Part shown: positions 1,098 through 45,625 of the stretch, in pieces
Layout of the letters: each line of letters opens with the position of its first letter
How positions within the stretch are numbered: position 1 is the first letter of the stretch
IMG/VR virus record: IMGVR_UViG_3300012347_000336
DNA length: 45,750 nucleotides
Origin: a virus
Strand: one strand, 5' to 3'
Made by a program: the position numbers and the translations under genes
Notes under the pieces: generated by a model
The model's database searches: none
Told to the model about the DNA's origin: nothing
What the model saw: the letters and a program-made list of their open reading frames with translations, nothing else

Positions 1098-1098
1098 G

Positions 1099-1269: not shown

Positions 1270-1272
1270 CCG

Positions 1273-1461: not shown

Positions 1462-1465
1462 TGAT

Positions 1466-4340: not shown

Positions 4341-4343
4341 GTC

Positions 4344-9306: not shown

Positions 9307-9307
9307 A

Positions 9308-27064: not shown

Positions 27065-27495
27065 TTCGAGTTGTGAAGATGAAGCCTCACCACTTGCAGG
27101 AGCTGCGCTTGCAGCCGATGCAGGAGGGGCTTTCGGCGACAATCAGGGACGACGCTTATGCGCAGTCCTTGGCCGAGACGGACTATGCGTTTGCTGTTCT
27201 TGCTGACGGCAAGGTCATCGCGTGTGCTGGTTGCCTTGAGATGTGGGAGAACCGCGCGTATGCGTGGTCGATGATTTCAAAAGACGCAGGGCCTCATTTC
27301 TTTGGGTTCTTGCGCGTGGTGGATGGCTTTTTAAAGCAGGCCCCATGGCGCAGGATTGAGGCCGCTGTGCAGTCAGATTTTGTGCAGGCGCATCGCATGA
27401 TCCGCTTGCTTGGTTTCGAGTTCGAGGGCTGCATGCGTGCGTTCTCGGTCGATGGTGTGGATAACGATCTTTACGCGAGGGTGCGACATGGCTGA
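27061..27495 (+). CDS. gp13-position protein with a GNAT-like fold signature (144 aa)
   Basis: The ATG at 27061 forms an ATGA overlap. '...RRIEAAVQSDFVQAHRMIRLLGFEFEG' resembles the acetyltransferase-fold C-terminal beta-alpha-beta unit. Its size and position match T7 gp13. Confidence 0.5.
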   Translation: MIRVVKMKPHHLQELRLQPMQEGLSATIRDDAYAQSLAETDYAFAVLADGKVIACAGCLEMWENRAYAWSMISKDAGPHFFGFLRVVDGFLKQAPWRRIEAAVQSDFVQAHRMIRLLGFEFEGCMRAFSVDGVDNDLYARVRHG

Positions 27496-28063
27496 TCCGG
27501 TAACGTTAATGCTGATCGCTGGTGGCATGCAGGCCGTCGGCGCAATACAACAAGGCAAAGCTCAGGCTGCTCAGCTTGAAAGCCAAGCCCGTGCTGATGA
27601 CTACAACGCTCAGATTCAAGCGAATCAAGCGGAAGAGACTGCACGTCAGGCTGGCCAACGCGAGGACTTGCAGCGTCGTCAGGCGCGTGCATTGATTGGC
27701 AAGCAAGTGGCCGGCACGGCTCAGGCTGGCATCAAGATGACCGGCTCTGCGCTGGACTTGTTGAATCAGTCTTACAAGGCGTCTGAGGAGGATGCGCTTG
27801 CGATTCGCTACGAGGGTGAGCTGAATCGTCAGGGTTTGCTGCAACAGTCTGAGCTGACCAAGTTTCAGGCTGCGTCTAATCGTTCGGCTGCTTCGTCCAC
27901 GATGAAGAACGCGTACTTGTCTGCCGCCACATCGATGGCGTCGGCTTATGCTTACACGAAGATGCCAGGCATAACGACGCCTGCTGGCTCCACCGGTACC
28001 GGCTTGAAGTCCGCTGGCTCGATGGGCTTTAAACCAACAGGCGGCATTGGCTTGCGCTACTAA
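27488..28063 (+). CDS. Internal virion protein, gp14 position (191 aa)
   Basis: The ATG at 27488 overlaps the upstream stop. It has an N-terminal hydrophobic helix (VTLMLIAGGMQAVGAI) followed by a Gln/Ala-rich coiled coil. Its size matches T7 gp14. Confidence 0.55.
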   Translation: MADPVTLMLIAGGMQAVGAIQQGKAQAAQLESQARADDYNAQIQANQAEETARQAGQREDLQRRQARALIGKQVAGTAQAGIKMTGSALDLLNQSYKASEEDALAIRYEGELNRQGLLQQSELTKFQAASNRSAASSTMKNAYLSAATSMASAYAYTKMPGITTPAGSTGTGLKSAGSMGFKPTGGIGLRY

Positions 28064-28072: not shown

Positions 28073-30673
28073 ATGGCAACAATTCCAGTTTATGAACGAC
28101 GCGTCCTGCCTTCTGGCGTTGGCGTGACACCGCGTGCCCAAGGTGCGCAGGTTGCTTCGACGGGTCAGGCTGTGGCGAACATGGGCCGAGCTCTTGGCCA
28201 GTTTGCCGAGCAGGAGATGGAAGACCGAGGCGCTCTTGAGGCGTCCAACGCTTTGTCAAAGGGCGACCTGCAATGGCGCGATCAGTTCACCGCGCGTGCG
28301 AACGAGTGGAAGCCTGGCGATCCTGACCTGCGCGAGCAGATCGGCAAGGAGTTCGATACTTGGACGCAAGAGACCGCTGGCAAGCTGCCGACCCGCAAGG
28401 CGCAGATGTATTTCCAGCAGAACGCTATCTCGATGAAGAACCGGCTCGACCGCGATGCCTTCATGCATCAAGAGCGCACGATCACCAATTCTGTTTTGCA
28501 ATCGACCGACGAGGGCATGCAGGCTGACATTCAGTTGGTGTTTGCTGACCCGAATCGTCGCGAGGAAATCGTCAAGCGTCGCGTGGCCACCATTGAGGCC
28601 GTTGGCCGAATCCCACCGGACAAGCGTCGCGAGATTTCGTTGAAGTTCATTGAGCAGGCCAACATGGCCGCTGAACAGTCCGAGCTTGCTGCCGACCCGT
28701 CTGGCTACTATTCGCGTCGTTTTGGCCGCATGGCTGTCGATGGCGCTGGCGCTTCTGGCGGATTCAACCATTCGATCGACATGCTACTCAAGTCCGAGGG
28801 TGGCTATGTCAGCGCCGACGGCACTTCTGGCGCTCCGGCCAACTTTGGCATCAATCAAAAATTCAACCCCGACATTGACGTCAAGTCGTTGACCCGCGAG
28901 AAGGCTGTCGAAATCTACAAGCAGCGCTACTGGGACAAGATCAACGGCGACGCGATGCCTCCTGAGCTGCAAGCGACCGCCATGGATGCTGCGGCCAATC
29001 AGGGCGTGGCTAATGCGAACAAGTGGATTGCTGAATCTGGTGGTGACCCTGTGCGCTTCAATGAGTTGCGTCGCGCTCACTACGAGTCGTTGATCGCGTC
29101 TGGCAAGTACACGGAGGCCGAGGGCAAGTCTTGGATGCGTCGCTTGGGAATCCACGAGAAAGCTGCCAACGGTGCGCTGCCGTCCGAAGATGACGCGGTC
29201 ATGGGCACGTCGCCTGGCTCGTTCATGGCGCTGCCCTACGAGAAGCGTTTGCAGTTGCGTCGTGCGGCTGATTCGGCCATCAAGCAAAACACAGCGGTGG
29301 CTGCGCAGGCTTTGCGTGGCCGATTGGCTGATTCGTCGGCCATGGCGCGTGACGGCATTCGTGACCCCAACCCGTTGACGCCCGAGTCGTTTGCTCCGCT
29401 TGGTGCTGATGCCACCATGGCGTACACCGAGTACGCTCGCACGCAGCAGTTGGCCACGGACGTTGCCGCGTTTAAGGGCTCCAACAATTCAACGCTTGAG
29501 GCTGTGGCTTCTGGTGGTGTGGTTCGTGCCGTTGCTGGTGCTGGGTACGCCGCTGAGGACGCCCGCGACAAGATTCGCCAACAAGCGGCTGCATCGATCT
29601 TGCAGCAGCGCAATGCCGACCCTGCTGGCTACGTCTCGAAAAACGTTCCGTCTGTCACCGAGTCCATGCGCACCATGCTGTCGGCCAAAACGCCCGAGGA
29701 GCAAGCTGCCGCAACGCAGAGCTTTGCCCGTGAGACGCTGGCCGCTCAGACCAACATGGGTGTTCGTGAGCCTCGCATCTTGTCGAAGGCTGCGGTTGAT
29801 GATCTTGGCACGCGTATTGCCAGCGGCAAGGAATCCGCCGCCGACCTGACTGCTGCGCTTGAGTCGCAATATGGCAAGCAGTACTTTCCGCAAGTTATGC
29901 GTGAGCTCATGAAGGACAGCAAGTTGCCGCCTGCCATGATGATCATTCCAGACCTGCCGTCTGCTGATGCTCGCGAGACCGTTTCTCGACTGTCGGCCAT
30001 GAAGCGTTCGGACTTGGATGCTGGCGTTGACGCGTCGATGATCAAGGACATCAAGGCCAAGGTCACAGACCACATCGCCGAGTTCCGCTTGTCTGCTGGC
30101 CCAATCGGCAAGGTCGGCGCTGAGCAAATGTCGGCGTATCAGGAAACCATGGAGCGCATCGCGATTGACTTTGCTGCCCGTGGTGTGCATAAAAACGGAG
30201 GCGCTGCGGCTGATGCTGCGCGTCAAATGCTGATTGGCAAGTACCAATTCGACGGCACATTGCGCATGCCTGCTGGCGTCAATTCTGGCGCTGTGACTGG
30301 TGGCCTGAGCAAGACTTTGCAGACAACGGTGCTGCCTGCGCTGACTGAGGCCGATGTGCCTGCTGATACGACTGGTGCTCGAACCGGTACCGAGGCGCTG
30401 ATCGAGTGGCGCAATTCTGTGGCTTCGCGTCATTTTTGGCTTGCAAACAACGACACCACGGCTGCTCAGTTGTGGGTCAAGGGTAAGAACGGCGAGTTCT
30501 TCCGCGTGATGCAGGGTGGCCAGCAGGTTGAGGTTCCGTTTGAATCTGCAACAGACATGTCTTCTTTGGCCGCTCAGCCGCATAATAGGGCCAGAATTGC
30601 TCAGCGCACCTACCGCGAATCTTTGGCGGTTGGCTCGCGCAAGATCGAGCAGCAAATGCAACAGGCTAAATAA
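28073..30673 (+). CDS. Internal virion protein (gp15 position) with an embedded GH108-like muramidase domain
   Basis: Residues about 230-345 read 'IDMLLKSEGGYVSADGTSGAPANFGINQKF...AVEIYKQRYWDKI...ELQATAMDAAANQGVANANKWI', which matches the glycoside hydrolase 108 pattern (EGGY catalytic box). Confidence 0.7.
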   Translation: MATIPVYERRVLPSGVGVTPRAQGAQVASTGQAVANMGRALGQFAEQEMEDRGALEASNALSKGDLQWRDQFTARANEWKPGDPDLREQIGKEFDTWTQETAGKLPTRKAQMYFQQNAISMKNRLDRDAFMHQERTITNSVLQSTDEGMQADIQLVFADPNRREEIVKRRVATIEAVGRIPPDKRREISLKFIEQANMAAEQSELAADPSGYYSRRFGRMAVDGAGASGGFNHSIDMLLKSEGGYVSADGTSGAPANFGINQKFNPDIDVKSLTREKAVEIYKQRYWDKINGDAMPPELQATAMDAAANQGVANANKWIAESGGDPVRFNELRRAHYESLIASGKYTEAEGKSWMRRLGIHEKAANGALPSEDDAVMGTSPGSFMALPYEKRLQLRRAADSAIKQNTAVAAQALRGRLADSSAMARDGIRDPNPLTPESFAPLGADATMAYTEYARTQQLATDVAAFKGSNNSTLEAVASGGVVRAVAGAGYAAEDARDKIRQQAAASILQQRNADPAGYVSKNVPSVTESMRTMLSAKTPEEQAAATQSFARETLAAQTNMGVREPRILSKAAVDDLGTRIASGKESAADLTAALESQYGKQYFPQVMRELMKDSKLPPAMMIIPDLPSADARETVSRLSAMKRSDLDAGVDASMIKDIKAKVTDHIAEFRLSAGPIGKVGAEQMSAYQETMERIAIDFAARGVHKNGGAAADAARQMLIGKYQFDGTLRMPAGVNSGAVTGGLSKTLQTTVLPALTEADVPADTTGARTGTEALIEWRNSVASRHFWLANNDTTAAQLWVKGKNGEFFRVMQGGQQVEVPFESATDMSSLAAQPHNRARIAQRTYRESLAVGSRKIEQQMQQAK

Positions 30674-30681
30674 GAGGCTCC

Positions 30682-33600
30682 ATGACCCTTTACTTCGATC
30701 AAGGCGGTACCGACCGCGTCACACTTCAAGACATCGAGCCTTCGTTTGGCACAAAGATGGGCGCTGCCGTCGATGAGGCTTGGCTTGAGTCGTATGGGCC
30801 GACCGCTGTTGATTGGGTAAACAAGAAGCGCCAGCAGGGCGAGCCGTTGTCTGCTGTTGCCGCTGCTGACAAAATCAAAGGCTCCGGCCTTGCTGTGTCT
30901 TTGAAGCCCAAGGACAACGAGTACACCGACGCCCAGCTTGATGTGGTTCTTGGCCGTCAGCGCGAGTTGACCGTTGCCAAGGACATTCGCGACCGCACGC
31001 CTTGGGACATGGGCTCTGCCGTGCGTGGTGTTGCCATGTTTGGTGCTGGCATTGCTGACCCTGTCAACTTGGCCACCGCGTTTGTCCCATGGACTCGTGC
31101 TGTCGGTGCTGCACGCGGCCTTGAGGCCGCTCGCTTGTCATCGTCTGCGCTGACCCGCTTTGGTGGCCGTGCTGGCTTGGGTGCGATTGATGCTGGCATT
31201 TCGACTGCCGCGCTTGAGCCGCTTTATGCTGGCATGCGTCGCAGCTTGGGTGACGACTATGACGCCATGGATTCTGTGGCAAACATCGCATTTGGCACTG
31301 CCTTTGGTGGCGGTGTGCTTGGCGTTGGTGGTGTGGGCGTGGACGCGTTCAGACAGGCCACAGGGCGTGCGTTGCCGTCCGCTAGGTTCAAAGGTATGTC
31401 CACGGACGATATCGAGCTTGTAACCGGCTTAGAGCGCGAAATTGCTGCTGGCATGGATGCTCGCGACGTTGCGCGTGTGCTGGAGACCTATTCGCCCGAG
31501 ATGCGCAAGTCTATGGGTTTTCCTGATGCCGATGCAACGCTAGACGTTGTTGTGCCTCCTGCTGGCATGGTGACCGGCAACGACGCCCGAGTGAAGGTTG
31601 GCGAGGTGTACGAGCCTGCGCAATGGGCCGTGGTCGATGCCGACCAGCTCACCGCCACGATCGACAAAGCCGACAACCAATTCCGCGACCGCAATCGTGC
31701 CGCTTATCAGGCCGAGCTGCAAACCCGCGCAAACAACCTAGACCCATCCTTGCTGCTGTCTGTGGATAACCCGCTGATGGACGTTGGCACGCCAACCATT
31801 GCAGTCGATGGCCGCATCATTGGTGGCAATGGCCGCACGCTGTTCATCCAACGCGCCTATGAAATCGGCAAGGGTGAAGACTACCGTGCCGCCTTATTGG
31901 CCAAGCTGACCGAGCTCGGCATCGACCCTGCGCAGGCTGAGGGCATCAAACGCCCAGTGCTCGTGCGTCGCTTCACGCGTCAGGTTGACGTCAAGAAGGC
32001 CGCGATGCTCTCCAACGAGGGTGGCTCCACTGCTATGTCTGCGCTGGAGCAGGCCAAGGTGGACGCTGAGCGCTTGTCGAACATCCGTCTGGAGGCTGAC
32101 GCCGACGGCAACTTCAACGTGGCGGGCAATCGTGCTGGCATCCGTCGCTGGCTTGAGGCTGTGCCGGACGGTGAGCGCAATGAGTTGATGTCTGCCGATG
32201 GCATGCTGTCGTCTGCTGGTTTGCAGCGCTTGCGCAACGCTTCCCTGTTTCGTGCCTATGGTGATTCGCCTGTGCTGGAGCGTTTGGTCGAATCGACGAA
32301 CGTTGGCAGTCGCAACGTTGCCTCTGCGCTGGCTCGTACTGTTGGCGTTGTTGCCGACGCTGAGGCTGGCATTGGCCGTGGTGAGCTGTACCCGTTGTCG
32401 ATCTCTGACGACATTCGCATGGCTGTTGAGCAATTTGAAAACCTGCGCCAGATGGCCATGCCGGTTGACGCCTACCTTGCCCAGCAGGACGCCTTGGGCG
32501 ACGCGCTGACCGGTGAGGCCCGTTTGCTTTTGAGTGTGATTGGCCGTCATGTGGCCAGCTCTCGCCGCATTGCCGACGTGATTTCTGGTTACTACGACCG
32601 CGTGCAAGACCTGGGCAACCCGTCGCAGGCTGACATTTTTGGCGACGTGATGACGCCCGACAAGCTGCGCATGCTGCAAGATTCGATCGACGAGATGGAG
32701 TCGCGCATGGACAACGCTGCCGAGGTAGTCGAGAAGGTCGAGCCAGAAACGCGTGAGGCCGCAATGCGTGCTGGAATCGCCCAGATGGCTGATGGCCGCG
32801 TGGTGGACGTTGAGGCGATCATCAAGACTGACCCAGCCGCTGGTGGCACTGCCACGGCTCAGGACTTACAGTCTGCTGCGGCTCGCAATCAAGCGCCGGA
32901 GTCTTTGCGTGTTGCTGACTTTGAGGCCAGTGGCGCAATTGACGCCGAGAATGCTACGGCTCCTAAGTGGTCTGGCGTTGCTGACGCTCAGGCTGCTATG
33001 GATGAGGCCGACGCCATGTTGGCCGACACGCTCAAGGCTGGCGATCAAGCGTTCAAGTACTCGCGCGGTGAAGCTCCTGGCCAGAAGAAGGCCACCGTGT
33101 GGCAGGGCACCACTGCCCGCTTTGCTGCCGAGCCAAACAACCCGCTTGGCATGTTCCGCTGGGACAAGATTAACAGCGAGTTCGGCGAGCAGGCGCAGGC
33201 GTTTGGCTATGGCCACTACCTTGCTCAGCAGGCTTGGGTTTCGCAGACGCGGTACCGTCAGCGCTTGACCGAGCGCCGGTTAAGTCAGGGCCGCTCGTAT
33301 GAGGTTTCTGATGGTGCTGGTGGCACGATGATCTTGAACATGATCACCAGCGCCAAGGCCTTTACATTGGCTGACGGCACGGTTGTTCACCGAGACCAAA
33401 AGAACCCAGCTATGGCCGCTAAGGCTGCTGCAATTTATCAAGTGCGCGAGTTTGGCTATGAGGGTGCTGAAATTAGCTTTCGTCGGCGAATCCAAGAAAT
33501 TGAAAATTCGATTGCAAATGAAACGTCTCCGTCAATGGCCGCTCGCATGCGTGGCGATCTTGCCGACGTTCGCGTCCGCTTGCGTGCAATTTATGACGTG

Positions 33601-36600
33601 ACTAAGCCCAACGAGGTGATCTATGACGAGGCGAAGATGGAGGGCGAGTTTGCCAAGTCCAGCTTCTACATCGACAACGACCCGATCAATGGCGCGGCTG
33701 CTCGCTTGTATGTTCAGAATTCACCGTTCGGCTTTGGCAACAAGGATTTTGACAGCGTCAACGAAGCGGTGCAGTTCATCCGCGACAACGCTGGCCGCAC
33801 GCTTGACCCTTCCATCAAAGAGTACGTGCCGCCTGTGCCGGACGACATGCGCACGCGCGTCATCGCTGGCGGTCAGGAAATCACCAGCAACTTGAGCTTG
33901 TACATCGAGCGCGAGGCCGATATCAGTTCTGGCCGCGTGCTGGGTGAAACCATTGGTTTGGACATCAAGCCTCGCACCTCGACGATCAAGGGTGTGAACA
34001 AGGTGGTGCAGCTCGATATGCTGCTTGAGCGTTTGAATCGCGACCAGCAGGCCGATGCCGTTGCGTCTCGTCAGTCTGCGATCACCGAGCTGGAGCAGTT
34101 GATTTCCAATGGCGTGACCGAGGCAAACGTCGAAGCGCCTGGCAGTCTGTACCGTGCTGAAATTCCAGAGGACGTGTTTGGGCGCATGCTTTTGTGGGAG
34201 GCACCCATGGGTGAGCAGTCCCCAGAGATTCAGGCGCTGTTTGAGGACTGGGGTCTTGAGCCGTTCAAGCCACCAGTGTGGGAGCCCATCGATGGTGGCT
34301 TCCAAATTGATCATGGCGTCAGCGGCAAGGTTGCTGTGAAAGAGCTCAAGCAACCGTCCGTTCAGGCGATCCTTGACCAGTACGGGTACCAGATTTATGA
34401 GGCTCCTGCTGGCAGTCCTGACGAGTGGGCTTTCCAATTCAAGGACGGGTCTGTGTCTTACTACAGCACGCTGACGGACGCCGAGGCTGTGGCCATCCGC
34501 GAGTGGGAGGTGGATTCTGGTGCTGAGGACGGTCGCTTTGCGTTCTATCGGCAAGGCAACCTTGCTGGCAACTATGCAACGCTGGACGAGGCTAAGGCTG
34601 CGGCCATGGACTGGTTGGGCGTGTCAGACTACACAGGCGAGTATGCCTACCGCTGGCTGGTCGACCAAATCAATTCAGGCGAGTATGGCGACGAGCTGGG
34701 CGACCCGATCATGGAGGCCCACTACGAGATCGCTACGCGTCGCTTCCCTGACGTTGAGCCAATTCAGGCTATGTCGGATTACGACCCGAGCCCAGAAGAA
34801 GTGGCCTCGATCATCTTGCACAACAACGGCGTGCCAGGTCATTTGTTCTTTGATGGCCAGTCTCGCGCTGCCGGTCAGGGTGCTTACAACCTAGTGGTTT
34901 ACGCTGATGACGTTGCCAAGATCGTTGATCGCTACGCACGCCAGACTGGTGAGCTGCTTCGCGCTACGGACAATCCTGCCGACATGGTTCAGGCTTTGCG
35001 CCTGTCGTTTGGCGAATCGACCGAGACGCTGCTTGATGCTGGCCGCGTTCGCATCGTTGCAACGCCAGATCAAATACCTGGCGGGCCGCATCCGGCTGAC
35101 GTCAAAGGCGCGACCGCACCGAACGGCTTGGTCTACATGGTGGCGTCTAACCTGAGCGTGGCTGAGGCCAAGGGCATGATGCTGCACGAGGTCGGCGTTC
35201 ACGTTGGCATGGAATCCATGCTTGGGCGTGAGTTGTTTGACGAGGTGTTGTCACAGCTTGACGACGCCATCTTGCGTGGTGAGGATTGGGCGCAGCGTGC
35301 CCGCGCTTCTGTTCCTGCCGACACGGCTGCTAGTTTGGTTCGTGAGGAGCAGTTGGCCTACTTGGTGCAAAACGCGCCGGAGCTGCCAATCGTTCAGCGC
35401 ATCATCGCTGCCGTTCGCGCTTGGGCTTACCGCACGTTTGAGGCTGCTCGTGGACGGTTTCAGCTCACCGAGGCCGACTTCCGCGCTTTGGCTGTGTCTG
35501 CCTTGCACGCTGCAGCACGCGCCGAGAAGGTAAGCGCTGAGGGCTTGTCGCCTGCGTTCTCTCGCGATCTCAAGCAAACGGCCACACGCGCGTTCCGTGA
35601 GTGGTTTGGTAAGTCTGAGCTCGTTGACGCTGCTGGCGATCCGTTGGTGATGTACCACGGCACGGCTGAGGACTTGGATGCTGTTGACCTTGGCCGCGCT
35701 GGTACCGCCACTGACATGGGCAACATGGGCACCGGCTTCTATGTCACGCCTGAGGACTTTATCGCCGAGACTTATGCCCGCATGGCTGGTGGTGACCGTG
35801 TTGTGATGCCTTTGTTTGTTCGCGCCGAGAACGTGCTCAAGCTGGGCACGCTGGACGAGAACTACATCACAGCCGTTACGCGTTTGACCGACGAGTGGGG
35901 CATGGCTGAGAAGCCTCAGTTCGACGGCACCAAGCAAAAGAACAAGGCATGGGCTGACGAGTTCGCGGCTGCGGCTCAGGCCCGTGGGTTTGACGCTGTT
36001 GCTGCCTACACGCCTGCTGGTGAAATGTTCCAGCTCGCTGTGTTCCGTGAGGACGCCGTCAAGCACGCCACTGAAAACACCGGCCAGTTCTCTCCAACTG
36101 ACAAACGCTTGCGCTACTCGCGTGGTGAGACGCCTGACAACGCTGGTGAAAACCCTGAGATGAAGGCAGCGGACGCCAAGGTGGCGCGTGCCAAGTCTTA
36201 TGCCAAGGTGCTTCGTTCTGCCGCTGACAAGCTGGACAACGACGCCGAGGCTGTGGCTGCGATGAAGTCTGAAATGCCGGACATCATGCCGGAGGAAATC
36301 GACGACTTGCTCGGCCGGTTGCGCAAGCAGGTGCAGGGCCTTCGTGGTGTGACGCGTTCTGTGCGTGACGCCATGGGCGCTGAGGATGCTGCGGCCAAGA
36401 TGCAAACTGAGGCCATGCGTGCGGCTGACATGCTGGCGAACAACTTGGAGATGGCTGCTGTCATCGAGCGTCGCAACGTGGCGCTAAACATGAACGTGCG
36501 CTTAAAGGCCGCGTCGTTTGTGAACCAGTACAAATCTAAGGGCTTGGACTTTGAGGGCTTTGCTGCCTTGCTGGTCGGCTCTCAGCGTGTTCGTGCTGGC

Positions 36601-38784
36601 GCTCGTGTGTCTGTCGATGCTGAGTACAAGGGTTTCCGTGGGGAGTTCTTGGGCGGCATGATTGCCGACATTGAGAAGCTGGGCCTCATGCGTGAGTTCG
36701 TGTCTGGCGTGTTTGACCGTGATGTGTACGACGCGCTGTGGCGCTTAGGCCAAGACAAGCCGGACTTGACCGGTCTGTCGCCTCAGGCGGTGCAGTTGGC
36801 AGAGATCGTCAACAAGTACCAGCAGACCGCTCGCGATCGTCGTAATCGTTTTGGCGCTTGGATTCGTGATCTGCAAGGCTACATCACGCGCCAGTCGCAC
36901 GACATGTTCAAAATCCGCGAGGCAACGGATGCCGAGTGGGTGGACTTCGTGAAGGACAAGCTCGACCTGCCCAAGATGATGCGATTGGGTTTGATCAGCG
37001 AAGTTGACCCCATGGGCTCGTTGCGTGCTCTGTACGACGACTTTGCTGCCGGTGTGCACATGAAGGCCAACCCGTTGGACGAGGACACGGTCGCCATGGG
37101 CAAGGGCTCGAATCTGGCGAAACGTGAATCTGTCAGCCGTGCCTTGTACTTCAAGGATGGCGTCTCGGCGTTTGAGTACAACCAGCGCTTTGGCATGGGC
37201 ACCTTGGCCGAGTCCGTTGTGACCGGCCTTGACCGCTCTGCCTCTGCTGCTGCGCTGCTCAAGACCTTGGGCACCAACCCAGAGGCAACGCTCACCCGTT
37301 TGCTTGACGAGTACGAGAATTCGCTTGTGTCTGACCCTGTCCGACGCGCCAAGTTCCGCGAGCGTCGTGGTGCTGTGATGAACTTGTTGGCTCAGGTGGA
37401 CGGCTCGGTGAACATTCCTGGCGATGTGACTGCGGCCAAGATCAGCTCGTTTGCCCGCTCTTGGATGAGCATGGCCAAGCTGGGTGGCGCGTTAATTTCT
37501 TCGGTGTCGGACTTGGCTGGTTACGCGGCTGAGCTGCGCTACTCCGAGGGGAAGAACATGTTTGAGGGTGTGCTTGACGGCATGAACCGACTGACTGAGG
37601 GCCGTGCCAAGAACGAGAAGGCCGACATTGTGTCTTCGCTTGGCGTGTTCCACGAGTCTGTGGCTGGCTCTGTGAGCGCCCGTTTTGACAATCCTGACTT
37701 GGTGGCTGGCAAGATGGCTGCGGCCATGCAGCAGTTCTTCAAGTTGAACGGTTTGAATTGGTGGACTGAAACGTTGCGCGACGGTGCTGCCTTGCAGCAT
37801 TCGCACTACATGGCGTTGCAGGCTGGCAAGAAGTTTGACGGTCTAGACCCAGAATTGCAGCGCTTGCTTACGCTCTACAACATCGACGGCAAGAAGTGGG
37901 ATTTGTTGCGTATGGGCACCATGCAAATGGCCGACGGTCGTGCGTACATGACGCCAGAGGCTTTGCGCACCGTGCCGCGTGCTGCGCTTGAGAACTACAT
38001 CACCGAGGTTGGCCGCACAGTCAGCGACGCGTCAGTGAAGAACTTGACCGACGATTTGTCGCAGGCTTTGCGCGTTATGGCCGTTGATCGTGCCCACCAT
38101 GCAGTGCTGGAGCCAAGCGCTCGCTCTCGTGCGTGGATGCTCCGTGGTTCACGCCCTGGCACTGTGCAGGGTGAGTTGCTGCGATTCATTGGCCAGTTCA
38201 AATCGTTTAGTGTGGCGATGACGCAGATGGTCTTGGGCCGCGAGGTCTATGGCCGTGGTTATGACACCGTGGGTGAGTACATCAAGAACGGGCGTGGCGA
38301 CATGGTTGGCTTGGCCTCGATGATCGGCATGTATGGTGCGTTGGGCTATGCCGCCATGGCTGGCAAGGACTTGCTCAAAGGGCGCGAGCCTCGTGACCCG
38401 ACCGACCCCAAGACCATCGTGGCCGCTTTGGCTCAGGGTGGTGGCCTTGGTATCTATGGCGACTTCCTGTTCGGCGAGTACTCGCGTATGGGCCGCACGT
38501 TCACATCGTCGCTGGCTGGGCCTGTGATCGGTAATTTGGACACGCTGACCGACTTGTGGACGCGCGTGCGCAACGGTGACGACGTGGCTGCGGCTTCATT
38601 TAAGGCGTTGCTGGACAATACACCGTTCTTAAATCTGTACTGGATTCGCCCGCTTTTGGACTACATGGTGCTGTTCCGCATTCAGGAATCGCTGAACCCT
38701 GGCTTCTTGCGCCGGATGGAGAAGCGGATCGAGCGTGAGAACGGTCAGTCATATATCTTGCCGCCGTCACAGGTAGCGTTCTAA
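30682..38784 (+). CDS. Giant polyvalent virion/ejection protein (2,700 aa; T7 gp16 position) with ParB-like and ADP-ribosyltransferase-like modules
   Basis: A single uninterrupted ORF with a GAGG RBS. A ParB-like box 'DGRIIGGNGRTLFIQRAY' lies at residues about 375-393. An ART-like module 'FREWFGKSELVDAAGDPLVMYHGT...GTGFYVTPEDF' lies at about 1637-1693. Gly-zipper hydrophobic segments occur near both termini. Confidence 0.85.
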   Translation: MTLYFDQGGTDRVTLQDIEPSFGTKMGAAVDEAWLESYGPTAVDWVNKKRQQGEPLSAVAAADKIKGSGLAVSLKPKDNEYTDAQLDVVLGRQRELTVAKDIRDRTPWDMGSAVRGVAMFGAGIADPVNLATAFVPWTRAVGAARGLEAARLSSSALTRFGGRAGLGAIDAGISTAALEPLYAGMRRSLGDDYDAMDSVANIAFGTAFGGGVLGVGGVGVDAFRQATGRALPSARFKGMSTDDIELVTGLEREIAAGMDARDVARVLETYSPEMRKSMGFPDADATLDVVVPPAGMVTGNDARVKVGEVYEPAQWAVVDADQLTATIDKADNQFRDRNRAAYQAELQTRANNLDPSLLLSVDNPLMDVGTPTIAVDGRIIGGNGRTLFIQRAYEIGKGEDYRAALLAKLTELGIDPAQAEGIKRPVLVRRFTRQVDVKKAAMLSNEGGSTAMSALEQAKVDAERLSNIRLEADADGNFNVAGNRAGIRRWLEAVPDGERNELMSADGMLSSAGLQRLRNASLFRAYGDSPVLERLVESTNVGSRNVASALARTVGVVADAEAGIGRGELYPLSISDDIRMAVEQFENLRQMAMPVDAYLAQQDALGDALTGEARLLLSVIGRHVASSRRIADVISGYYDRVQDLGNPSQADIFGDVMTPDKLRMLQDSIDEMESRMDNAAEVVEKVEPETREAAMRAGIAQMADGRVVDVEAIIKTDPAAGGTATAQDLQSAAARNQAPESLRVADFEASGAIDAENATAPKWSGVADAQAAMDEADAMLADTLKAGDQAFKYSRGEAPGQKKATVWQGTTARFAAEPNNPLGMFRWDKINSEFGEQAQAFGYGHYLAQQAWVSQTRYRQRLTERRLSQGRSYEVSDGAGGTMILNMITSAKAFTLADGTVVHRDQKNPAMAAKAAAIYQVREFGYEGAEISFRRRIQEIENSIANETSPSMAARMRGDLADVRVRLRAIYDVTKPNEVIYDEAKMEGEFAKSSFYIDNDPINGAAARLYVQNSPFGFGNKDFDSVNEAVQFIRDNAGRTLDPSIKEYVPPVPDDMRTRVIAGGQEITSNLSLYIEREADISSGRVLGETIGLDIKPRTSTIKGVNKVVQLDMLLERLNRDQQADAVASRQSAITELEQLISNGVTEANVEAPGSLYRAEIPEDVFGRMLLWEAPMGEQSPEIQALFEDWGLEPFKPPVWEPIDGGFQIDHGVSGKVAVKELKQPSVQAILDQYGYQIYEAPAGSPDEWAFQFKDGSVSYYSTLTDAEAVAIREWEVDSGAEDGRFAFYRQGNLAGNYATLDEAKAAAMDWLGVSDYTGEYAYRWLVDQINSGEYGDELGDPIMEAHYEIATRRFPDVEPIQAMSDYDPSPEEVASIILHNNGVPGHLFFDGQSRAAGQGAYNLVVYADDVAKIVDRYARQTGELLRATDNPADMVQALRLSFGESTETLLDAGRVRIVATPDQIPGGPHPADVKGATAPNGLVYMVASNLSVAEAKGMMLHEVGVHVGMESMLGRELFDEVLSQLDDAILRGEDWAQRARASVPADTAASLVREEQLAYLVQNAPELPIVQRIIAAVRAWAYRTFEAARGRFQLTEADFRALAVSALHAAARAEKVSAEGLSPAFSRDLKQTATRAFREWFGKSELVDAAGDPLVMYHGTAEDLDAVDLGRAGTATDMGNMGTGFYVTPEDFIAETYARMAGGDRVVMPLFVRAENVLKLGTLDENYITAVTRLTDEWGMAEKPQFDGTKQKNKAWADEFAAAAQARGFDAVAAYTPAGEMFQLAVFREDAVKHATENTGQFSPTDKRLRYSRGETPDNAGENPEMKAADAKVARAKSYAKVLRSAADKLDNDAEAVAAMKSEMPDIMPEEIDDLLGRLRKQVQGLRGVTRSVRDAMGAEDAAAKMQTEAMRAADMLANNLEMAAVIERRNVALNMNVRLKAASFVNQYKSKGLDFEGFAALLVGSQRVRAGARVSVDAEYKGFRGEFLGGMIADIEKLGLMREFVSGVFDRDVYDALWRLGQDKPDLTGLSPQAVQLAEIVNKYQQTARDRRNRFGAWIRDLQGYITRQSHDMFKIREATDAEWVDFVKDKLDLPKMMRLGLISEVDPMGSLRALYDDFAAGVHMKANPLDEDTVAMGKGSNLAKRESVSRALYFKDGVSAFEYNQRFGMGTLAESVVTGLDRSASAAALLKTLGTNPEATLTRLLDEYENSLVSDPVRRAKFRERRGAVMNLLAQVDGSVNIPGDVTAAKISSFARSWMSMAKLGGALISSVSDLAGYAAELRYSEGKNMFEGVLDGMNRLTEGRAKNEKADIVSSLGVFHESVAGSVSARFDNPDLVAGKMAAAMQQFFKLNGLNWWTETLRDGAALQHSHYMALQAGKKFDGLDPELQRLLTLYNIDGKKWDLLRMGTMQMADGRAYMTPEALRTVPRAALENYITEVGRTVSDASVKNLTDDLSQALRVMAVDRAHHAVLEPSARSRAWMLRGSRPGTVQGELLRFIGQFKSFSVAMTQMVLGREVYGRGYDTVGEYIKNGRGDMVGLASMIGMYGALGYAAMAGKDLLKGREPRDPTDPKTIVAALAQGGGLGIYGDFLFGEYSRMGRTFTSSLAGPVIGNLDTLTDLWTRVRNGDDVAAASFKALLDNTPFLNLYWIRPLLDYMVLFRIQESLNPGFLRRMEKRIERENGQSYILPPSQVAF

Positions 38785-38808: not shown

Positions 38809-40788
38809 ATGACCGTTTCAACAACCACAGCGCGATCGGGCCCGTATGCTGGCTCCGGCACGACTGGCCCATTCACCGTAGGATTCCGCTTCCTCGAAAA
38901 CTCTCACATTAAGGTCGTGAAAAACGTGGCCGGTGTAGAGGAGGAGCTGGAGCTTGATGTCGACTACACCGTCACTGGTGCTGGCGCTTCGTCTGGTTCT
39001 GTGACGCTTGGTACCGCTTTAGCCACTGGCCAGACGCTGACCATCGTTCGCAACGTGCCGACGACGCAAGAGACGGACTATGTGGCTGGCGATTCGTTCC
39101 CTGCTGAATCTCACGAGCGTGCGCTTGACCAGCTCACCATGATTGCGCAGCAGCTCAAGGAGGAGGTCGATCGCTCCGCCAAGCTGCCGGTGTCAAACAC
39201 CGAAGATGCGAACGCCTTGGTGGCCGACATTGTCCGTTTGGCCGATAGCGCCGACGAGCTGGATGCTGTTGCTGCAATCGTTGCTGACGTGACCACCGTT
39301 GCTGGTGTGGACACTGAGGTCACCACCGTCGCCGGTATCGCTGCCAACGTGACCACGGTTGCTGGTATTGCTGCTAATGTGACCACGGTGGCTGGCAACA
39401 CGACCAACATCAACACTGTGGCTGGAGTCTCGTCAAACGTGACGACCGTCGCTGGCGTGTCTTCTGCTGTGACTACTGTGGCTGGCATCTCTGCGGCTGT
39501 GAGTACCGTTGCCGCTGATGGCGTTGACATTGGTGCGGTTGCGGCCATCTCTGTCGACGTTCAAGCTGTGGCCGATATTGCCAGCGACGTTTCTGCCGTT
39601 GAGAACATCGCGGCCAACGTGACGACCGTGGCAGGTATCTCCTCCAACGTTACGACCGTGGCTGGCATCGCTGCAAACGTCACGACTGTGGCCGGTGTGT
39701 CTGCTGCTGTGTCTACCGTGGCCACAAACATTGCGTCTGTAAACAGCGCGGCCACAAACATGGCTGCAATCATCGCTGCACCAACTGAGGCTGCAAACGC
39801 TGCCAGCTCTGCCAGCTCTGCTGCTGCAAGCGCTGCTGCTGCTTCTTCGTCTTTGGATTCGTTTGATGATCGCTACCTTGGCCCGAAGTCGTCTGACCCA
39901 ACGCTTGACAACGACGGAAACGCTTTGGTGACCGGTGCGTTGTACTACAACACCACCACGCAGACCATGAAGGTCTATGACGGTGCGAACTGGATCACTG
40001 CCACGGCTGCTGGCACGACAGCGATGAACGTCTACAAGTACGTTGCAACCGCTGGTCAGACAACATTCAGTGGGGCTGCTGCTGTCGGTGGCACTATGAG
40101 CTACACAAGTGGCAACATCATCGTGTTCTTGAACGGCGCTGCACTTGATAGCACAGACTACACGGCAACCAACGGCACAAGCGTTGTGCTTGCATCTGGC
40201 GCTGCGCTGAATGATGAAGTTGTGGTGGTGGCATTTAAGTCGTTCACTGTAGCTGACACTTACACGCAGTCTGCTGCTGATGCGTTGTTGGCTGCAAAGG
40301 CTCCGCTTGCAAGTCCCACGTTTACTGGTTTAGTTACGACTGCTGGGCAGATCAAATTTCCAGCATCTCAAAACGCCAGCGCTGACGCAAACACGCTGGA
40401 TGATTACGAGGAGGGGACTTGGACGCCCACACTGACTGCGGCAGTTTCCGCTCCAACAATTTCCTACGCTTTAAGAACTGGAACCTATGTAAAGATTGGC
40501 AGGATGGTTACAGTTTTTGCAACTTTGCGCTGGACATCTTTTAGCGGAGGAAGCGGTAATTTGCTCGTCAATAATTTGCCTTTTGTTGGGGCTTCAGATT
40601 CGGACGAGTGCGGAGGAGCGATAGGCTTGACTGTAAGCTGGACAACTGCTCCAACACAATTACAAGTTGATTCCACTACGGCTAATCTTTATCTCATGCG
40701 GAATACGGCAAACGCAAACAGCCCAGTCGGAGATGTTGGGTCTGGTCAATATTTGAATTTTTCAATTTGCTACACCACAGATTCTTAA
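38809..40788 (+). CDS. Tail fibre protein (659 aa; T7 gp17 position)
   Basis: A GGAG RBS precedes it. The N-terminal virion-attachment-like domain reads 'GPFTVGFRFLENSHIKV...DYTV...GQTLTIVRNVPTTQETDY...ESHERALDQLTMIAQQLKEE'. It carries 17 decapeptide repeats, the fibre motif 'GALYYNTTTQTMKVYDGANWI' and the distal 'LDDYEEGTWTPTL' domain. Confidence 0.85.
   Translation: MTVSTTTARSGPYAGSGTTGPFTVGFRFLENSHIKVVKNVAGVEEELELDVDYTVTGAGASSGSVTLGTALATGQTLTIVRNVPTTQETDYVAGDSFPAESHERALDQLTMIAQQLKEEVDRSAKLPVSNTEDANALVADIVRLADSADELDAVAAIVADVTTVAGVDTEVTTVAGIAANVTTVAGIAANVTTVAGNTTNINTVAGVSSNVTTVAGVSSAVTTVAGISAAVSTVAADGVDIGAVAAISVDVQAVADIASDVSAVENIAANVTTVAGISSNVTTVAGIAANVTTVAGVSAAVSTVATNIASVNSAATNMAAIIAAPTEAANAASSASSAAASAAAASSSLDSFDDRYLGPKSSDPTLDNDGNALVTGALYYNTTTQTMKVYDGANWITATAAGTTAMNVYKYVATAGQTTFSGAAAVGGTMSYTSGNIIVFLNGAALDSTDYTATNGTSVVLASGAALNDEVVVVAFKSFTVADTYTQSAADALLAAKAPLASPTFTGLVTTAGQIKFPASQNASADANTLDDYEEGTWTPTLTAAVSAPTISYALRTGTYVKIGRMVTVFATLRWTSFSGGSGNLLVNNLPFVGASDSDECGGAIGLTVSWTTAPTQLQVDSTTANLYLMRNTANANSPVGDVGSGQYLNFSICYTTDS
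39265..39774 (+). repeat. In-frame array of 17 x 30-bp (decapeptide, consensus TVAGIAANVT) repeats inside the fibre gene
   Basis: The 30-nt periodicity is visible directly in the 60-nt sequence lines 39301-39720. The units differ mainly at synonymous positions. Confidence 0.9.
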
Positions 40789-41030: not shown

Positions 41031-41288
41031 ATGTCACTGCAAGAAACAAAAGTCATCGACCAAATCACCGTCACCGAAAACGGCATTGTGCTGTATCGTG
41101 AAGCAACTCGCATCACTCGCGACGGAGAACAAATCGCGCAGACATTCCACCGCACTTCACTTGTGCCTGGCCAAGACCTGACTGACCAGCCAGCTAACGT
41201 AGTTGCCATTGCCAACGTAGCTTGGACACCTGAAGTCGTCGCCGCATACGAGGCGCAAGTCGCCGCACAAGCTGGAGGTGTTCAATGA
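41031..41288 (+). CDS. Small hypothetical protein (85 aa) between the two fibre genes
   Basis: An AAGGAAATCAA RBS context precedes it. It is ATGA-coupled to the second fibre gene and may be a fibre accessory or chaperone, judging by position only. Confidence 0.65.
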   Translation: MSLQETKVIDQITVTENGIVLYREATRITRDGEQIAQTFHRTSLVPGQDLTDQPANVVAIANVAWTPEVVAAYEAQVAAQAGGVQ

Positions 41289-42379: not shown

Positions 42380-42380
42380 G

Positions 42381-42551
42381 ATGACCTATAAAAAATTACC
42401 AAAACTTCGACAAGATGACTCTCAGTCGTTGGCCTGCATTGACGATGACGGTAAGTGCCGTCTAACTTGCACGGAGCAAGACCAAGCCTATTTGGCATGG
42501 TTGGAGGAAGGCAACACGCCCGAGCCAGCAGACGAACCAACAGCGGAGTAA
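42381..42551 (+). CDS. Small hypothetical protein (copy 2 of 1099..1269)
   Basis: Identical copy, offset +41,282. Confidence 0.55.
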   Translation: MTYKKLPKLRQDDSQSLACIDDDGKCRLTCTEQDQAYLAWLEEGNTPEPADEPTAE

Positions 42552-42554
42552 CCG

Positions 42555-42743: not shown

Positions 42744-42747
42744 TGAT

Positions 42748-45622: not shown

Positions 45623-45625
45623 GTC

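Follow-up and report, generated by a model that had tools for sequence, protein, structure and literature searches.

Phage-type polyvalent proteins were described by Iyer, Burroughs, Anand, de Souza and Aravind (2017, PMC5512222), and the concept has been known since then. A virion-detected precedent is gp47 of phage phi24B, a 2,811-aa polyvalent protein that is abundant in virions and was proposed to be an ejection protein (bioRxiv 10.64898/2026.04.10.717836). The ejection proteins of podoviruses have also been reviewed; they vary greatly in size, their gp16-like members carry membrane helices near the C-terminus, and a lysozyme domain can be swapped onto the gp15 homolog, as in the phage studied here. 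In the cultured relative YA3, the products of a syntenic gene trio, gp15-gp17, are among the proteins detected in virions by mass spectrometry. The paper on the podovirus PhiGT1 contains nothing on cargo-bearing internal proteins.

We analyzed a 45,750-nt stretch of viral DNA (IMG/VR record IMGVR_UViG_3300012347_000336, the whole of which is referred to as the window), in which one gene encodes a protein of 2,700 aa. The best explanation, to which we assign a probability of about 0.7, is that its product belongs to the internal (ejection) proteins of a podovirus, of which it is the last and largest, that it bears cargo, and that it was fused from two genes. Entry of the protein into the host cell alongside the DNA is probable. 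What this locus adds to the systems named above is detail and testability, not a new kind of protein.

The giant gene in its operon and genome

The gene and its neighbors are located as follows:

27410..28063, + strand: upstream partner gene for an internal virion protein assigned to the T7_gp14 family (PF24072; 37.8 bits, cut-off 27)
28073..30673, + strand: upstream partner at the gp15 position, an internal protein of 866 aa that bears a GH108 lysozyme domain and lacks cysteine
30672..30677, + strand: Shine-Dalgarno-like AAGAGG, 4 nt 5' of the ATG and overlapping the TAA stop of the upstream gene
30682..38784, + strand: whole giant gene, read as a 2,700-aa fused ejection and polyvalent protein, with an ATG start and without internal stop
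38809..40788, + strand: downstream tail fiber gene, which closes the operon

The genes run in the order portal, scaffold, capsid, tail tube A, tail tube B, T7_gp14-family protein, GH108 protein, giant gene and tail fiber. This is a podovirus ejection-protein operon, and the ejection-protein review gives the same order. Judged by sequence comparison, the relatives of the phage are Ab31-, epsilon15- and pelagiphage-type podoviruses. The close relatives of the giant protein are all metagenomic, and a megablast search of the gene against 50,697 phage records returned no near-identical phage. Other genes found among the scanned ORFs, a subset of those in the genome, encode RecT, YqaJ and a VapE-type primase. 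No RNA polymerase was present among the scanned ORFs, and early transcription may therefore depend on the host enzyme.

Bases 1-4468 of the window are identical to bases 41283-45750 and represent a wrapped contig end, so the unique genome measures 41,282 bp, of which the giant ORF takes up 19.6%. An uninterrupted 8.1-kb ORF covering about 20% of the genome, as claimed in an earlier reading of the sequence alone (the sequence-only reading), is thereby borne out at 2,700 aa. With the ORF's own base composition, 2,700 stop-free codons would arise by chance with a probability of ~1e-41. An ORF of this length might nevertheless be an artefact, in which two or more genes were merged by a sequencing or assembly error or joined in a chimeric contig; two genes do occupy the same place in cultured relatives, and the source is a metagenomic contig with a wrapped end. 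Against this, the frame is kept in at least 120 homologs of 1,600-2,900 aa with 41-99% identity, so the ORF is not an assembly or frameshift artefact. The N-terminal anchor and the C-terminal backbone described below share one frame in no fewer than 120 independent proteins, which come from JGI, ENA, Logan and NCBI assemblies, the junction sequence is conserved too, and G+C is uniform along the gene. A frameshift that fused two genes was accordingly rejected, since the fusion is conserved among homologs; by sequence, this conservation already refutes the artefact reading, which we consider next to impossible.

Anchors, cargo slots and junctions

At least 232 metagenomic homologs were found, and 120 homologs of 1,600-2,900 aa were examined and mapped. 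All share a common backbone, and their cargo differs slot by slot. The parts of the giant protein are listed below.

30682..31521, + strand: N-terminal anchor, aa 1-280, kept in nearly all 120 mapped homologs
31030..31407, + strand: Gly-zipper hydrophobic segment, aa 117-242, matching phrog_342 positions 316-416 (E 8e-6)
31615..31974, + strand: slot 1, ddrB-ParB domain, aa 312-431 (Pfam PF18763, 81 bits against a cut-off of 27.6)
31975..32631, + strand: helical extension of the ParB domain, aa 432-650 (phrog_5143, phrog_2299, phrog_14693)
32632..33081, + strand: conserved Ala/Asp-rich linker block, aa 651-800, ending in junction motif A
33046-33069, + strand: junction motif A, AFKYSRGE, aa 789-796, at the end of the linker block
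33082..34968, + strand: slot 2, aa 801-1429, ~630 aa of modules without known family
33286..33831, + strand: hypervariable hot spot of slot 2, aa 869-1050, from comparison with close relatives
34969..35556, + strand: HExxxH module, aa 1430-1625, predicted gluzincin-like metallopeptidase, kept in every member mapped
35626..36090, + strand: slot 3, ART-PolyVal ADP-ribosyltransferase domain, aa 1649-1803 (Pfam PF18760, 60.9 bits against a cut-off of 31.2)
36112..36147, + strand: junction motif B, RYSRGETPDNAG, aa 1811-1822
36169..38784, + strand: C-terminal backbone, aa 1830-2700, of phrog_684 (ORF16) type after its first ~25 aa
38302..38472, + strand: pair of Gly-rich hydrophobic segments near the C-terminus, aa 2541-2597, for which insertion into the inner membrane is proposed

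The two ends of the protein correspond to two separate proteins in other phages. Ab31 and Vibrio phage 1.182.O have two genes at this place, which encode a phrog_3003 protein (579 and 566 aa, respectively) and a phrog_684 protein (858 and 825 aa). The N-terminal anchor is the N-terminus of the former, known as ORF15, and aa 1871-2698 match positions 20-828 of the 840 positions of phrog_684, annotated as 'virion structural protein', and thus match it over its full length (E 1e-171). Matches by tblastn to Ab31, pelagiphages and phiV10 showed 26-39% identity. The first ~25 aa of the backbone are similar to the tail at the C-terminus of the separate ORF15 protein, and the tail of the phrog_3003 protein and the head of the phrog_684 protein of Ab31 and the Vibrio phage align across aa ~1830-1862 of the giant protein. 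By these alignments, the giant gene is a fusion of two ancestral ejection-protein genes and not one enlarged gene. In the Vibrio phage, the phrog_3003 protein has a YHGT ART-like module between anchor and tail already. Ancestral gene 1 was probably a cargo carrier as well, in which a Gly-zipper anchor was followed by a variable middle and by a short tail at the C-terminus, and ancestral gene 2 would have supplied the 830-aa backbone with hydrophobic segments near its end.

In the sequence-only reading, the gene was taken to replace a T7 gp16-type core protein. This holds by position, but homology is only local. Similarity to the T7 gp16 family could be detected in aa 117-242 and nowhere else (25 bits over 125 aa); this stretch is Gly-rich and hydrophobic, and the match to phrog_342 could reflect composition. 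T7 gp16 itself matches phrog_342 over its full length, the giant protein through this stretch alone. When T7 gp14, gp15 and gp16 were compared with the N- and C-terminal family profiles by hhalign, probabilities did not exceed 1.5%. Searches of PDB by sequence with the N-terminal, ART and C-terminal parts and the HExxxH profile gave chance-level matches only, and NCBIfam gave no match to the giant protein. The giant protein has no muralytic domain or N-terminal lytic transglycosylase; the GH108 lysozyme domain is found in the upstream 866-aa protein instead.

The modules agree with the outline drawn in the sequence-only reading. The glycine-zipper segments placed at about residues 113-222 correspond to Gly-rich hydrophobic windows at aa 117-135 and 199-220, and the membrane-like segments of a C-terminal region of about 880 residues to windows at aa 2541-2560 and 2579-2597. 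The ParB-like module (about 305-430) and the ADP-ribosyltransferase-like module (about 1626-1800) are the ddrB-ParB and ART-PolyVal domains of slots 1 and 3; the long helical extension is aa 432-650, the Ala/Asp-rich linker is the block aa 651-800, and the modules of unknown function, quoted by peptides that begin at aa 805 and 1156, fall in slot 2, which is without Pfam match. Both hallmark families named in advance were thus recovered above their Pfam cut-offs, whereas the LPD families named with them were not; no LPD or peptidase family of Pfam matched, with the whole protein at E<=1 or with seven sub-segments at E<=10. The reading as a 'polyvalent protein' is sustained by the two hallmark families and by the PBECR5, GNAT and Zeta toxin domains in the slots of relatives.

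Exchange among homologs takes place by slot: the first holds ParB, the second the PBECR5 nuclease or modules of unknown function, and the third ART, GNAT or Zeta toxin. Among 20 homologs, cargo comprised ART (8), ddrB-ParB (8), PBECR5 (3), GNAT (3) and Zeta toxin (1). The ParB domain and its helical extension are present or absent as one unit, and at least 95% of 60 homologs retain the ParB motif GGNGR (aa 381-385), taken to include the active-site Arg of the ParB/Srx fold. The block aa 651-800 follows; a reading of it as a low-complexity linker only was rejected, as it is kept in nearly all homologs. In one homolog (P0044), a PBECR5 nuclease domain stands right after junction motif A, at the start of slot 2. 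Short sub-blocks of slot 2 recur in other giant polyvalent proteins. At its hot spot, relatives that are 91-93% identical overall show a 173-aa deletion (as two adjacent gaps) or a 51-aa insertion, and local identity falls to 33-53%. A model of aa 800-1640 built from 9 sequences reached a pLDDT of 64 and had no PDB fold match at E<0.3; its apparent fold matches were rejected as noise. In slot 3, H1659 is kept in 41 of 45 homologs and D1771 in 44 of 45. On sequence grounds, these residues fit two positions of the H-Y-D active site of the clade (Iyer et al. 2017, PMC5512222), and Y1686, within GFYV, is the candidate tyrosine.

Between slots 2 and 3 lies the HExxxH module, with its HEVGVH motif at nt 35185-35202. 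Residues H1502, E1503, H1507, E1556 and Y1560 are the same in all of 36 sequences whose identity to the window's copy is 31-53%. The AlphaFold model of the module (pLDDT 91, pTM 0.81) consists of a helix, three strands, the motif-bearing helix and a Glu-bearing helix, and the same zincin core has been described for polyvalent-protein metallopeptidases. Its top PDB fold match, although non-significant (Foldseek E 0.12, TM 0.25), is MATCAP, a gluzincin whose motif is HExxxH and whose third ligand is EE(G). Based on motif and modeled topology, the module is predicted to be a gluzincin-like metallopeptidase; the metallopeptidase families of Pfam gave no match to it. A profile search that included the module returned 5,401 representative proteins, and nearly all of the best 150 matched through it; examples of other proteins with the module carry SNF2-/Sbno-type helicases, a methylase, InPase or LPD23. 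Predicted viral structures annotated as 'internal virion protein D' and 'large polyvalent protein associated domain' also match the module. The presence of a peptidase does not imply cleavage, because the N4 virion RNA polymerase has a metallopeptidase domain and yet is packaged unprocessed.

A Y[SA]RG motif is found 884-891 aa from the C-terminus in almost all 120 homologs, whichever module precedes it, and the Y-S-R-G motif also occurs at other module borders. YSR is 3.8-fold enriched in module-bearing proteins, a value measured within these proteins only, with no control set. Instead of marking a cleavage site, the junction motif could serve a structural or docking purpose, or be the conserved end of a module.

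None of the 2,700 residues of the giant protein is a cysteine, whereas most other proteins of the window contain 0.3-1.8%, and the whole family has 2 cysteines in 263,981 residues. T7 gp15 and gp16, which are known to be ejected, have none either. The absence of cysteine would be explained if, as proposed here, the proteins exit the tail unfolded, and a near-zero cysteine content may serve as a cheap sequence signature for ejected proteins in metagenomes. The fusion origin, the HExxxH module (aa 1430-1625), the junction motifs and the absence of cysteine had all been missed in the sequence-only reading.

Proposed delivery and alternative readings

We infer how the protein is packaged and ejected, its topology in the membrane, its processing and targets, and any role against host defenses. 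A few copies of the giant protein would be assembled with the gp14-like and GH108 proteins into a core above the portal. At infection, all three proteins would exit through the tail unfolded; the gp14-like protein and the lysozyme would open the outer membrane and the cell wall, and the giant protein would insert into the inner membrane through its N- and C-terminal hydrophobic segments, so that the intervening 2,300 residues could reach the cytoplasm ahead of, or with, the DNA. All modules may then, as the sequence-only reading proposed, be inside the cell before phage genes are expressed. There, the ParB module might act on or protect DNA, and the ART might modify host proteins with NAD+. 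The peptidase module may cut the Y-S-R-G junctions and free the modules, a step that we regard as possible, at somewhat less than even odds.

A more elaborate version is speculative and, taken as a whole, rather doubtful. It holds that the protein is a self-processing chassis of two membrane-anchoring halves and three cassette slots, in which a MATCAP-like peptidase cuts at Y-S-R-G after ejection and sets the effectors (ParB, nucleases, ART, GNAT, Zeta toxin) free in the cytoplasm ahead of all phage gene expression. The halves of two-gene relatives would be linked by a disulfide between their only cysteines, a bond that the fusion would have replaced, and satellite-like islands (e.g., in Hydrogenophaga) would encode their own copy and ride a helper capsid with their own entry device.

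Delivery itself may be accepted and the cargo still be thought to serve the phage's own DNA or entry rather than an attack on host defenses. ParB would then hold or protect the leading DNA end in the manner of the P1 Dar system, the ART would redirect host RNA polymerase like T4 Alt, and the peptidase would cut cell-wall peptides. The Dar antirestriction system of P1 includes DdrB as a head protein, T4 injects its ART Alt and thereby retargets RNA polymerase, and the authors of the phi24B study propose a wall-degrading role for the gp47 metallopeptidase; the lack of a phage RNA polymerase among the scanned ORFs also fits. However, the upstream protein already has a GH108 lysozyme domain, the HExxxH module also occurs in polyvalent proteins with helicase and methylase domains, and the present evidence fits host takeover and anti-defense alike, both of which fall within the polyvalent-protein concept. 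We hold this reading to be unlikely. Another reading is a mainly structural role as conduit or core protein, with the modules as spacers, exapted or inactive, that determine how large the core or trans-envelope tube is or what shape it takes, and that deliver no activity. The conserved parts are indeed the anchors, the linker and the C-terminal backbone, slot 2 has no assignable function, and ejection proteins are known to differ widely in size. A range of 1,600-2,900 aa across the family is nevertheless ill-suited to a ruler, catalytic-type residues are kept in the ParB, ART and HExxxH modules, and the alternative cargoes (PBECR5 nuclease, GNAT, Zeta toxin) are all conflict-system-type enzymes; we consider this role improbable.

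It is very unlikely that the protein is made late, stays unpackaged and acts in the producing cell, for example in superinfection exclusion or protein modification before lysis. Packaging is something we infer, which leaves room for such a role, but the gene sits within the internal-virion-protein operon, the families that the backbone matches carry annotations as internal virion or virion structural proteins, and related proteins (YA3 gp15-gp17, phi24B gp47) were detected in virions. A purely cytoplasmic role would also leave unexplained the near-zero cysteine content that the protein has in common with the ejected T7 gp15 and gp16.

The reading as a cargo-bearing ejection protein would make this phage an example of a small phage that spends a fifth of its genome on proteins acting before gene expression. 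Its conserved anchors and three swappable slots offer a comparative map of the activities that phages choose to inject, and the HExxxH module and Y-S-R-G junctions provide a predicted active-site glutamate and a defined candidate cleavage site that are testable in cultured relatives.

Comparison with known systems

Like the polyvalent proteins of Iyer et al. (2017), the giant protein places several effector-type domains on a single polypeptide, whose gene lies among the late structural genes; it has the ddrB-ParB and ART-PolyVal hallmarks, a zincin-like peptidase candidate and a predicted delivery with the DNA. It differs from them in that the cargo lies between two ejection-protein halves and not on a MuF, portal or N4-type RNA polymerase carrier, in that it has no LPD match in Pfam (LPD domains being frequent there, though not obligatory), and in that its peptidase-like module is of the HExxxH and not the HExxH type and belongs to no Pfam family. 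Other head-packaged enzymes injected with the DNA are the N4 virion RNA polymerase, P1 DdrB/DarB, T4 Alt and the MuF-toxin fusions. Of these, P1 DdrB is the ParB prototype, T4 Alt is the precedent for the ART, and the N4 enzyme demonstrates that a 3,500-aa protein can be ejected; they involve other carrier domains and morphotypes, and none is built on a membrane-anchoring ejection-protein backbone.

With MATCAP/TMCP and DPP III, which are gluzincins, the peptidase-like module has in common the extended HExxxH and a downstream Glu-Glu as the likely third ligand. These are eukaryotic or cellular exopeptidases with unrelated substrates and without sequence-level similarity to the module, and the fold match to MATCAP is weak. 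phi24B gp47, compared here by description and not by sequence, is likewise a giant polyvalent podovirus protein with a metallopeptidase domain; proteomics detected it in virions, and its authors propose a capsid-packaged ejection protein. It has LPD5, LPD1, LPD38 and a MuF-C peptidase instead, and anchor and backbone halves or cargo slots were not described for it.

T7 gp16 resembles the giant protein as the last and largest internal-protein gene product before the tail fiber, in an operon whose first such gene is of the T7_gp14 family in the present phage, and in its hydrophobic segments and lack of cysteine; aa 117-242 match the gp16 PHROG. The giant protein is twice its size, lacks the N-terminal transglycosylase and full-length homology, and carries ParB and ART cargo that T7 gp16 does not. 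The two-gene versions, namely Ab31 ORF15 and ORF16, YA3 gp16 and gp17, NVP1182O_16 and 17 of Vibrio phage 1.182.O, and the 'internal virion proteins' of pelagiphages, are separate polypeptides with one cysteine each at the facing ends, little or no cargo, and neither HExxxH module nor Y-S-R-G junctions. They nevertheless have a homologous N-terminal anchor (phrog_3003) and C-terminal backbone (phrog_684), in the same order as in the giant protein.

Genomic setting of the giant ORF

The giant gene is a single uninterrupted ORF at 30682-38784 (+ strand, ATG start, 2,700 codons), as claimed in the sequence-only reading. The hexamer AAGAGG lies 4 nt 5' of the ATG and overlaps the stop codon of the gene before it. 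At the base composition of the ORF itself, the computed chance of 2,700 stop-free codons is ~1e-41, and the G+C content is even over the whole gene. Positions 1-4468 of the window are identical to 41283-45750 (4,468 bases), which leaves a unique genome of 41,282 bp. The contig is a wrapped (circular or concatemeric) assembly, in which the ORFs of the first 4.5 kb are present twice. The giant gene makes up 19.6% of the 41,282 bp, in agreement with the earlier estimate of about 20%.

Late gene order around the giant gene (window positions)
18764: portal
20685: scaffold/protease-like gene, phrog_3742 family
21783: major capsid protein
24201: tail tube A
24851: tail tube B
27410-28063: T7_gp14-family internal protein
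28073-30673: 866-aa internal protein with GH108 lysozyme domain, directly before the giant gene
30682-38784, +: giant gene
38809: tail fibre, after the giant gene

These surroundings are a podovirus ejection-protein operon matching the review of Swanson, Hou and Cingolani, which also describes a shift of the lysozyme domain from the gp16 homologue to the gp15 homologue. The gp16-like proteins in that review range from 609 to 1,337 aa, and the giant protein is twice their upper size limit. Elsewhere, the genome encodes RecT, a YqaJ exonuclease, a Toprim/VapE primase and a ParB-methylase; among the ORFs scanned in the window, neither an RNA polymerase nor an integrase was identified. A second ParB-type domain was observed at 14673-16010, just before the packaging genes, where a borderline ParB_N (24.1 bits vs cut-off 26.3) is fused to an N6/N4 DNA methylase. 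Sizeable window ORFs without a Pfam family are found at 3-1097 (364 aa, +), 4344-5180 (277 aa, -) and 10023-11759 (577 aa, -). A DNA-level search of phage records with the giant gene returned no similar record. At the protein level, the cultured phages closest to it are Pseudomonas phage Ab31 with its kin, Vibrio phage 1.182.O, pelagiphages and phages of the epsilon15/phiV10 type.

Origin of the giant gene and relation to T7 gp16

Matches to PHROG profiles were confined to the two ends of the giant protein: aa 1-226 align with positions 1-220 of phrog_3003, and aa 1871-2698 span the full length of phrog_684, 'virion structural protein' (E 1e-171). Both families are encoded by adjacent separate genes in Ab31 (579 + 858 aa) and in Vibrio phage 1.182.O (566 + 825 aa). 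The giant gene thus arose by fusion of two genes for ejection proteins. In the giant protein, aa ~1830-1850 resemble the C-terminal tail of Ab31 ORF15 (...AEKYSKAYRAAALCEIGRG), and aa ~1850-1870 resemble the N-terminus of ORF16 (...SPCADAVRAAAGDMEATEIQEIF). Because tail and head match consecutive stretches, the join is direct and in frame.

In Vibrio phage 1.182.O, the phrog_3003 protein NVP1182O_16 (7773-9473 of locus L002) has an ART-like module, KVYYHGT...GYDGMIDHDYGQTAVF, between anchor and tail. The module follows the pattern YHGT...G(Y)DG, and the only annotation of the protein is 'coil containing protein'. Since an ART-like module is already present in this separate protein, cargo carrying is older than the fusion. 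NVP1182O_16 is a small cultured version of the cargo carrier and is hence testable.

It had been proposed that the ORF replaces a T7 gp16-type core protein. The operon position bears this out, and the gp16-type character proved to be local. The Gly-zipper stretch of the anchor (aa 117-242) matches phrog_342 at E 8e-6 (one homologue at 5e-5), a family that T7 gp16 matches end to end. Comparison of the N- and C-terminal family profiles with T7 gp14, gp15 and gp16 by hhalign gave probabilities of 1.5% or less, no T7 homology was found outside aa 117-242, and PDB sequence searches were empty. The giant protein thus occupies the same place as T7 gp16, but homology to it is not demonstrable apart from one hydrophobic segment.

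Conserved blocks, cargo slots and the HExxxH module

With the full-length protein as query, at least 232 proteins were found at E<=1e-10. The best 120 of these (1,600-2,900 aa; JGI, ENA, Logan and NCBI assemblies) were mapped onto the query, which revealed four conserved blocks and three variable regions.

Blocks and slots of the giant protein (aa positions)
1-~280: N anchor, conserved
~300-650: slot 1, variable; ParB with helical extension, kept or lost as a unit
~650-800: linker, conserved
~800-1430: slot 2, variable; modules without assigned family in the window
~1430-1625: HExxxH module, conserved
~1640-1810: slot 3, variable; ART in the window
~1811-2700: C backbone, conserved

Most domains predicted earlier from the sequence were recovered. 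The ParB-like module is Pfam ddrB-ParB (aa 312-431, 81 bits vs cut-off 27.6), with a GGNGR motif conserved in homologues, and the ADP-ribosyltransferase-like module is ART-PolyVal (aa 1649-1803, 60.9 bits vs cut-off 31.2), in which H1659 and D1771 are conserved in homologues. The predicted hydrophobic Gly-rich segments correspond to windows at aa 117-135, 199-220, 2541-2560 and 2579-2597, and the peptides quoted for two modules of unknown function begin at aa 805 and aa 1156. The LPD families suggested as a check gave no Pfam match on the whole giant protein or on seven segments of it at E<=10; an NCBIfam search with the giant protein also returned no match. The earlier module list was accurate for the modules it named and lacked one, the HExxxH module at aa 1430-1625.

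Among 20 diverse members, a Pfam census gave ART-PolyVal and ddrB-ParB in 8 each, PBECR5 nuclease and GNAT acetyltransferases in 3 each and a Zeta toxin in 1. The PBECR5 domain of the homologue P0044 begins directly after the AFKYSRGE motif that ends the linker, where slot 2 begins. Turnover is recent: relatives with 91-93% overall identity differ within aa 869-1050 by a 173-aa deletion or a 51-aa insertion, and local identity there falls to 33-53%. Slot 2 has no family; AlphaFold modelled it with moderate confidence (pLDDT 64), and no PDB fold matched the model. Three short sub-blocks of this slot recur in proteins of 5,700-7,200 aa; slot 2 is therefore built from units circulating among giant polyvalent proteins. 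One ~50-aa unit, ..GVPGHxFxDGxSRxxxxxxYNLVVYxDDVAKIVDRYAR, lies just before the HExxxH module (window 34810-34968, aa ~1380-1429) and is present in up to four copies per protein in the 5,700-7,200-aa proteins of other metagenomes. The start of the slot (window 33079-33290, aa 800-870), GQKKATxWQGTTARF...FRWDxINS...AQAFGYGHYLAQQAW, is among its most conserved stretches. Despite this conservation the AlphaFold pLDDT is 25-34, and the stretch may fold only against a partner.

A 1,630-aa 'minimal' homologue, P0116, was observed in Hydrogenophaga sp. GCA_030694665.1 (contig JAUYUP010000026, L003 1477-16681). Its site is a ~14-kb island adjoining guaA, not a full prophage, and the same island is found at two further loci (L004 and L005). 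The island genes comprise an integrase, AlpA, a PriCT/Toprim primase, a primase/helicase-like ORF, DUF5681 and a 207-aa protein of phrog_3742, the family that also includes the scaffold-like gene of the window; gene calling gave no portal, capsid or tail genes for the island. It looks like a phage satellite that brings its own scaffold-like and ejection proteins.

All family members that were mapped contain the HExxxH module. Searching 1.84 billion representative proteins with a profile of aa 800-1640 (E<=0.001) gave 5,401 matches. Nearly all of the best 150 matched via the HExxxH module and were mostly proteins of 1,000-7,000 aa, with module partners such as SNF2/Strawberry-notch helicases, methylase, InPase and LPD23. 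Such combinations are typical polyvalent architectures. Invariance across 36 sequences, 31-53% identical to the window copy, is limited to five residues (H1502, E1503, H1507, E1556 and Y1560), forming the pattern H-E-x-x-x-H followed by E-E-x-L-A-Y. AlphaFold with a deeper alignment gave a model (pLDDT 91, pTM 0.81) with N-terminal helices, three strands, the motif helix and a later Glu helix, and the same core has been described for zincin-like metallopeptidases of polyvalent proteins (Iyer et al. 2017, PMC5512222). The best PDB fold matches were three human MATCAP chains, although weak (E 0.12-0.34, TM 0.25). MATCAP/TMCP1 is a gluzincin in which the motif is extended to HExxxH and, as in DPP III, an EEG motif supplies the third ligand. 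Among predicted viral structures, proteins of Burkholderia phage Bp-AMP4 and Ralstonia phage Alix and entries named 'Internal virion protein D' and 'Large polyvalent protein associated domain-containing protein' also matched (E 7e-7 to 1e-2). No Pfam family covers the module. With moderate confidence, we regard it as a variant zincin peptidase.

Possible processing, cysteine avoidance and comparison with known systems

The Y-S-R-G motif occurs at the end of the linker block (aa 792-796, AFKYSRGE) and again after ART (aa 1811-1815, LRYSRGETPD). In almost all of the best 120 homologues, Y[SA]RG is found 884-891 aa from the C-terminus, whichever module precedes it, with the consensus Y-S-R-G-E-T-P-D-P-S-T; the two flagged exceptions read YCRG and LSRG. 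More copies of this type are found at other module borders. Per protein, ~2.7 [YF]SR were observed vs 0.6 expected, and YSR is 3.8-fold enriched in module-bearing representatives. The motif is absent from the two-gene relatives. Because a conserved border peptide adjoins a conserved peptidase-like module, the pattern suggests self-processing at module borders, in line with what Iyer et al. 2017 (PMC5512222) proposed in general terms. A counter-example to processing is the N4 virion RNA polymerase, which is packaged uncut.

Cysteine is absent from all 2,700 residues of the giant protein, and only 2 Cys were found in 263,981 residues of the best 120 family members, irrespective of cargo. Most other window proteins contain 0.3-1.8% Cys. 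The upstream GH108 protein (28073-30673) has none in 866 residues. T7 gp15 and gp16, which are ejected proteins, also lack Cys in 747 and 1,318 residues, and a Cys-free composition may be a general mark of ejected proteins. It lends indirect support to a presumed unfolded passage through the tail and the oxidising periplasm. In the two-gene relatives Ab31 (L001 9001-13316, ORF15 + ORF16) and Vibrio phage 1.182.O (L002 7773-11947), each protein has exactly one Cys: in the first protein it stands 5-6 residues before the C-terminus, and in the second it is residue 4 or 12. These Cys-bearing ends are the ones peptide-bonded in the fused protein of the window, which hints at an inter-protein disulfide in two-gene virions that fusion would have replaced.

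The following mechanism can be envisaged. A few copies of the giant protein would join the internal core and, after adsorption, exit through the tail together with the lysozyme protein and the gp14-like protein. The hydrophobic segments of its N- and C-terminal parts would insert into the inner membrane and so place the cargo between them in the cytoplasm. There, the ParB module could bind, cut or shield DNA, ART could modify host proteins, and the peptidase would perhaps free modules at Y-S-R-G.

Virion data from related systems are available. For the Ab31-like phage YA3, which has the same operon, 13 virion proteins were detected by mass spectrometry, gp17 (847 aa) included, and gp15-gp17 are treated in the text as virion components. 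In the Stx phage phi24B, the 2,811-aa gp47 carries LPD5, LPD1, LPD38 and a MuF-C metallopeptidase; it is abundant in virions and invisible in the reconstruction, and is proposed by its authors to be an ejection protein packaged in the capsid (bioRxiv 10.64898/2026.04.10.717836). More than 9,900 polyvalent proteins were catalogued by Iyer et al. 2017 (PMC5512222), of which ~35% are phage-type and predicted to be packaged; DdrB-ParB is listed as phage-specific, and ART, with an H-Y-D site, is the commonest protein-modifying domain. The parallel with polyvalent proteins drawn in the sequence-only reading holds, as the giant protein shows the defining features of that family and the missing LPD domains are not obligatory. 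It would work like a phage-type polyvalent protein. The polyvalent concept is eight years old and has a proteomic precedent in phi24B; new relative to the literature searched are the explicit anchor, slots and backbone architecture that arose from a gene fusion, the HExxxH module and the junction motif that goes with it, and the Cys-free signature.
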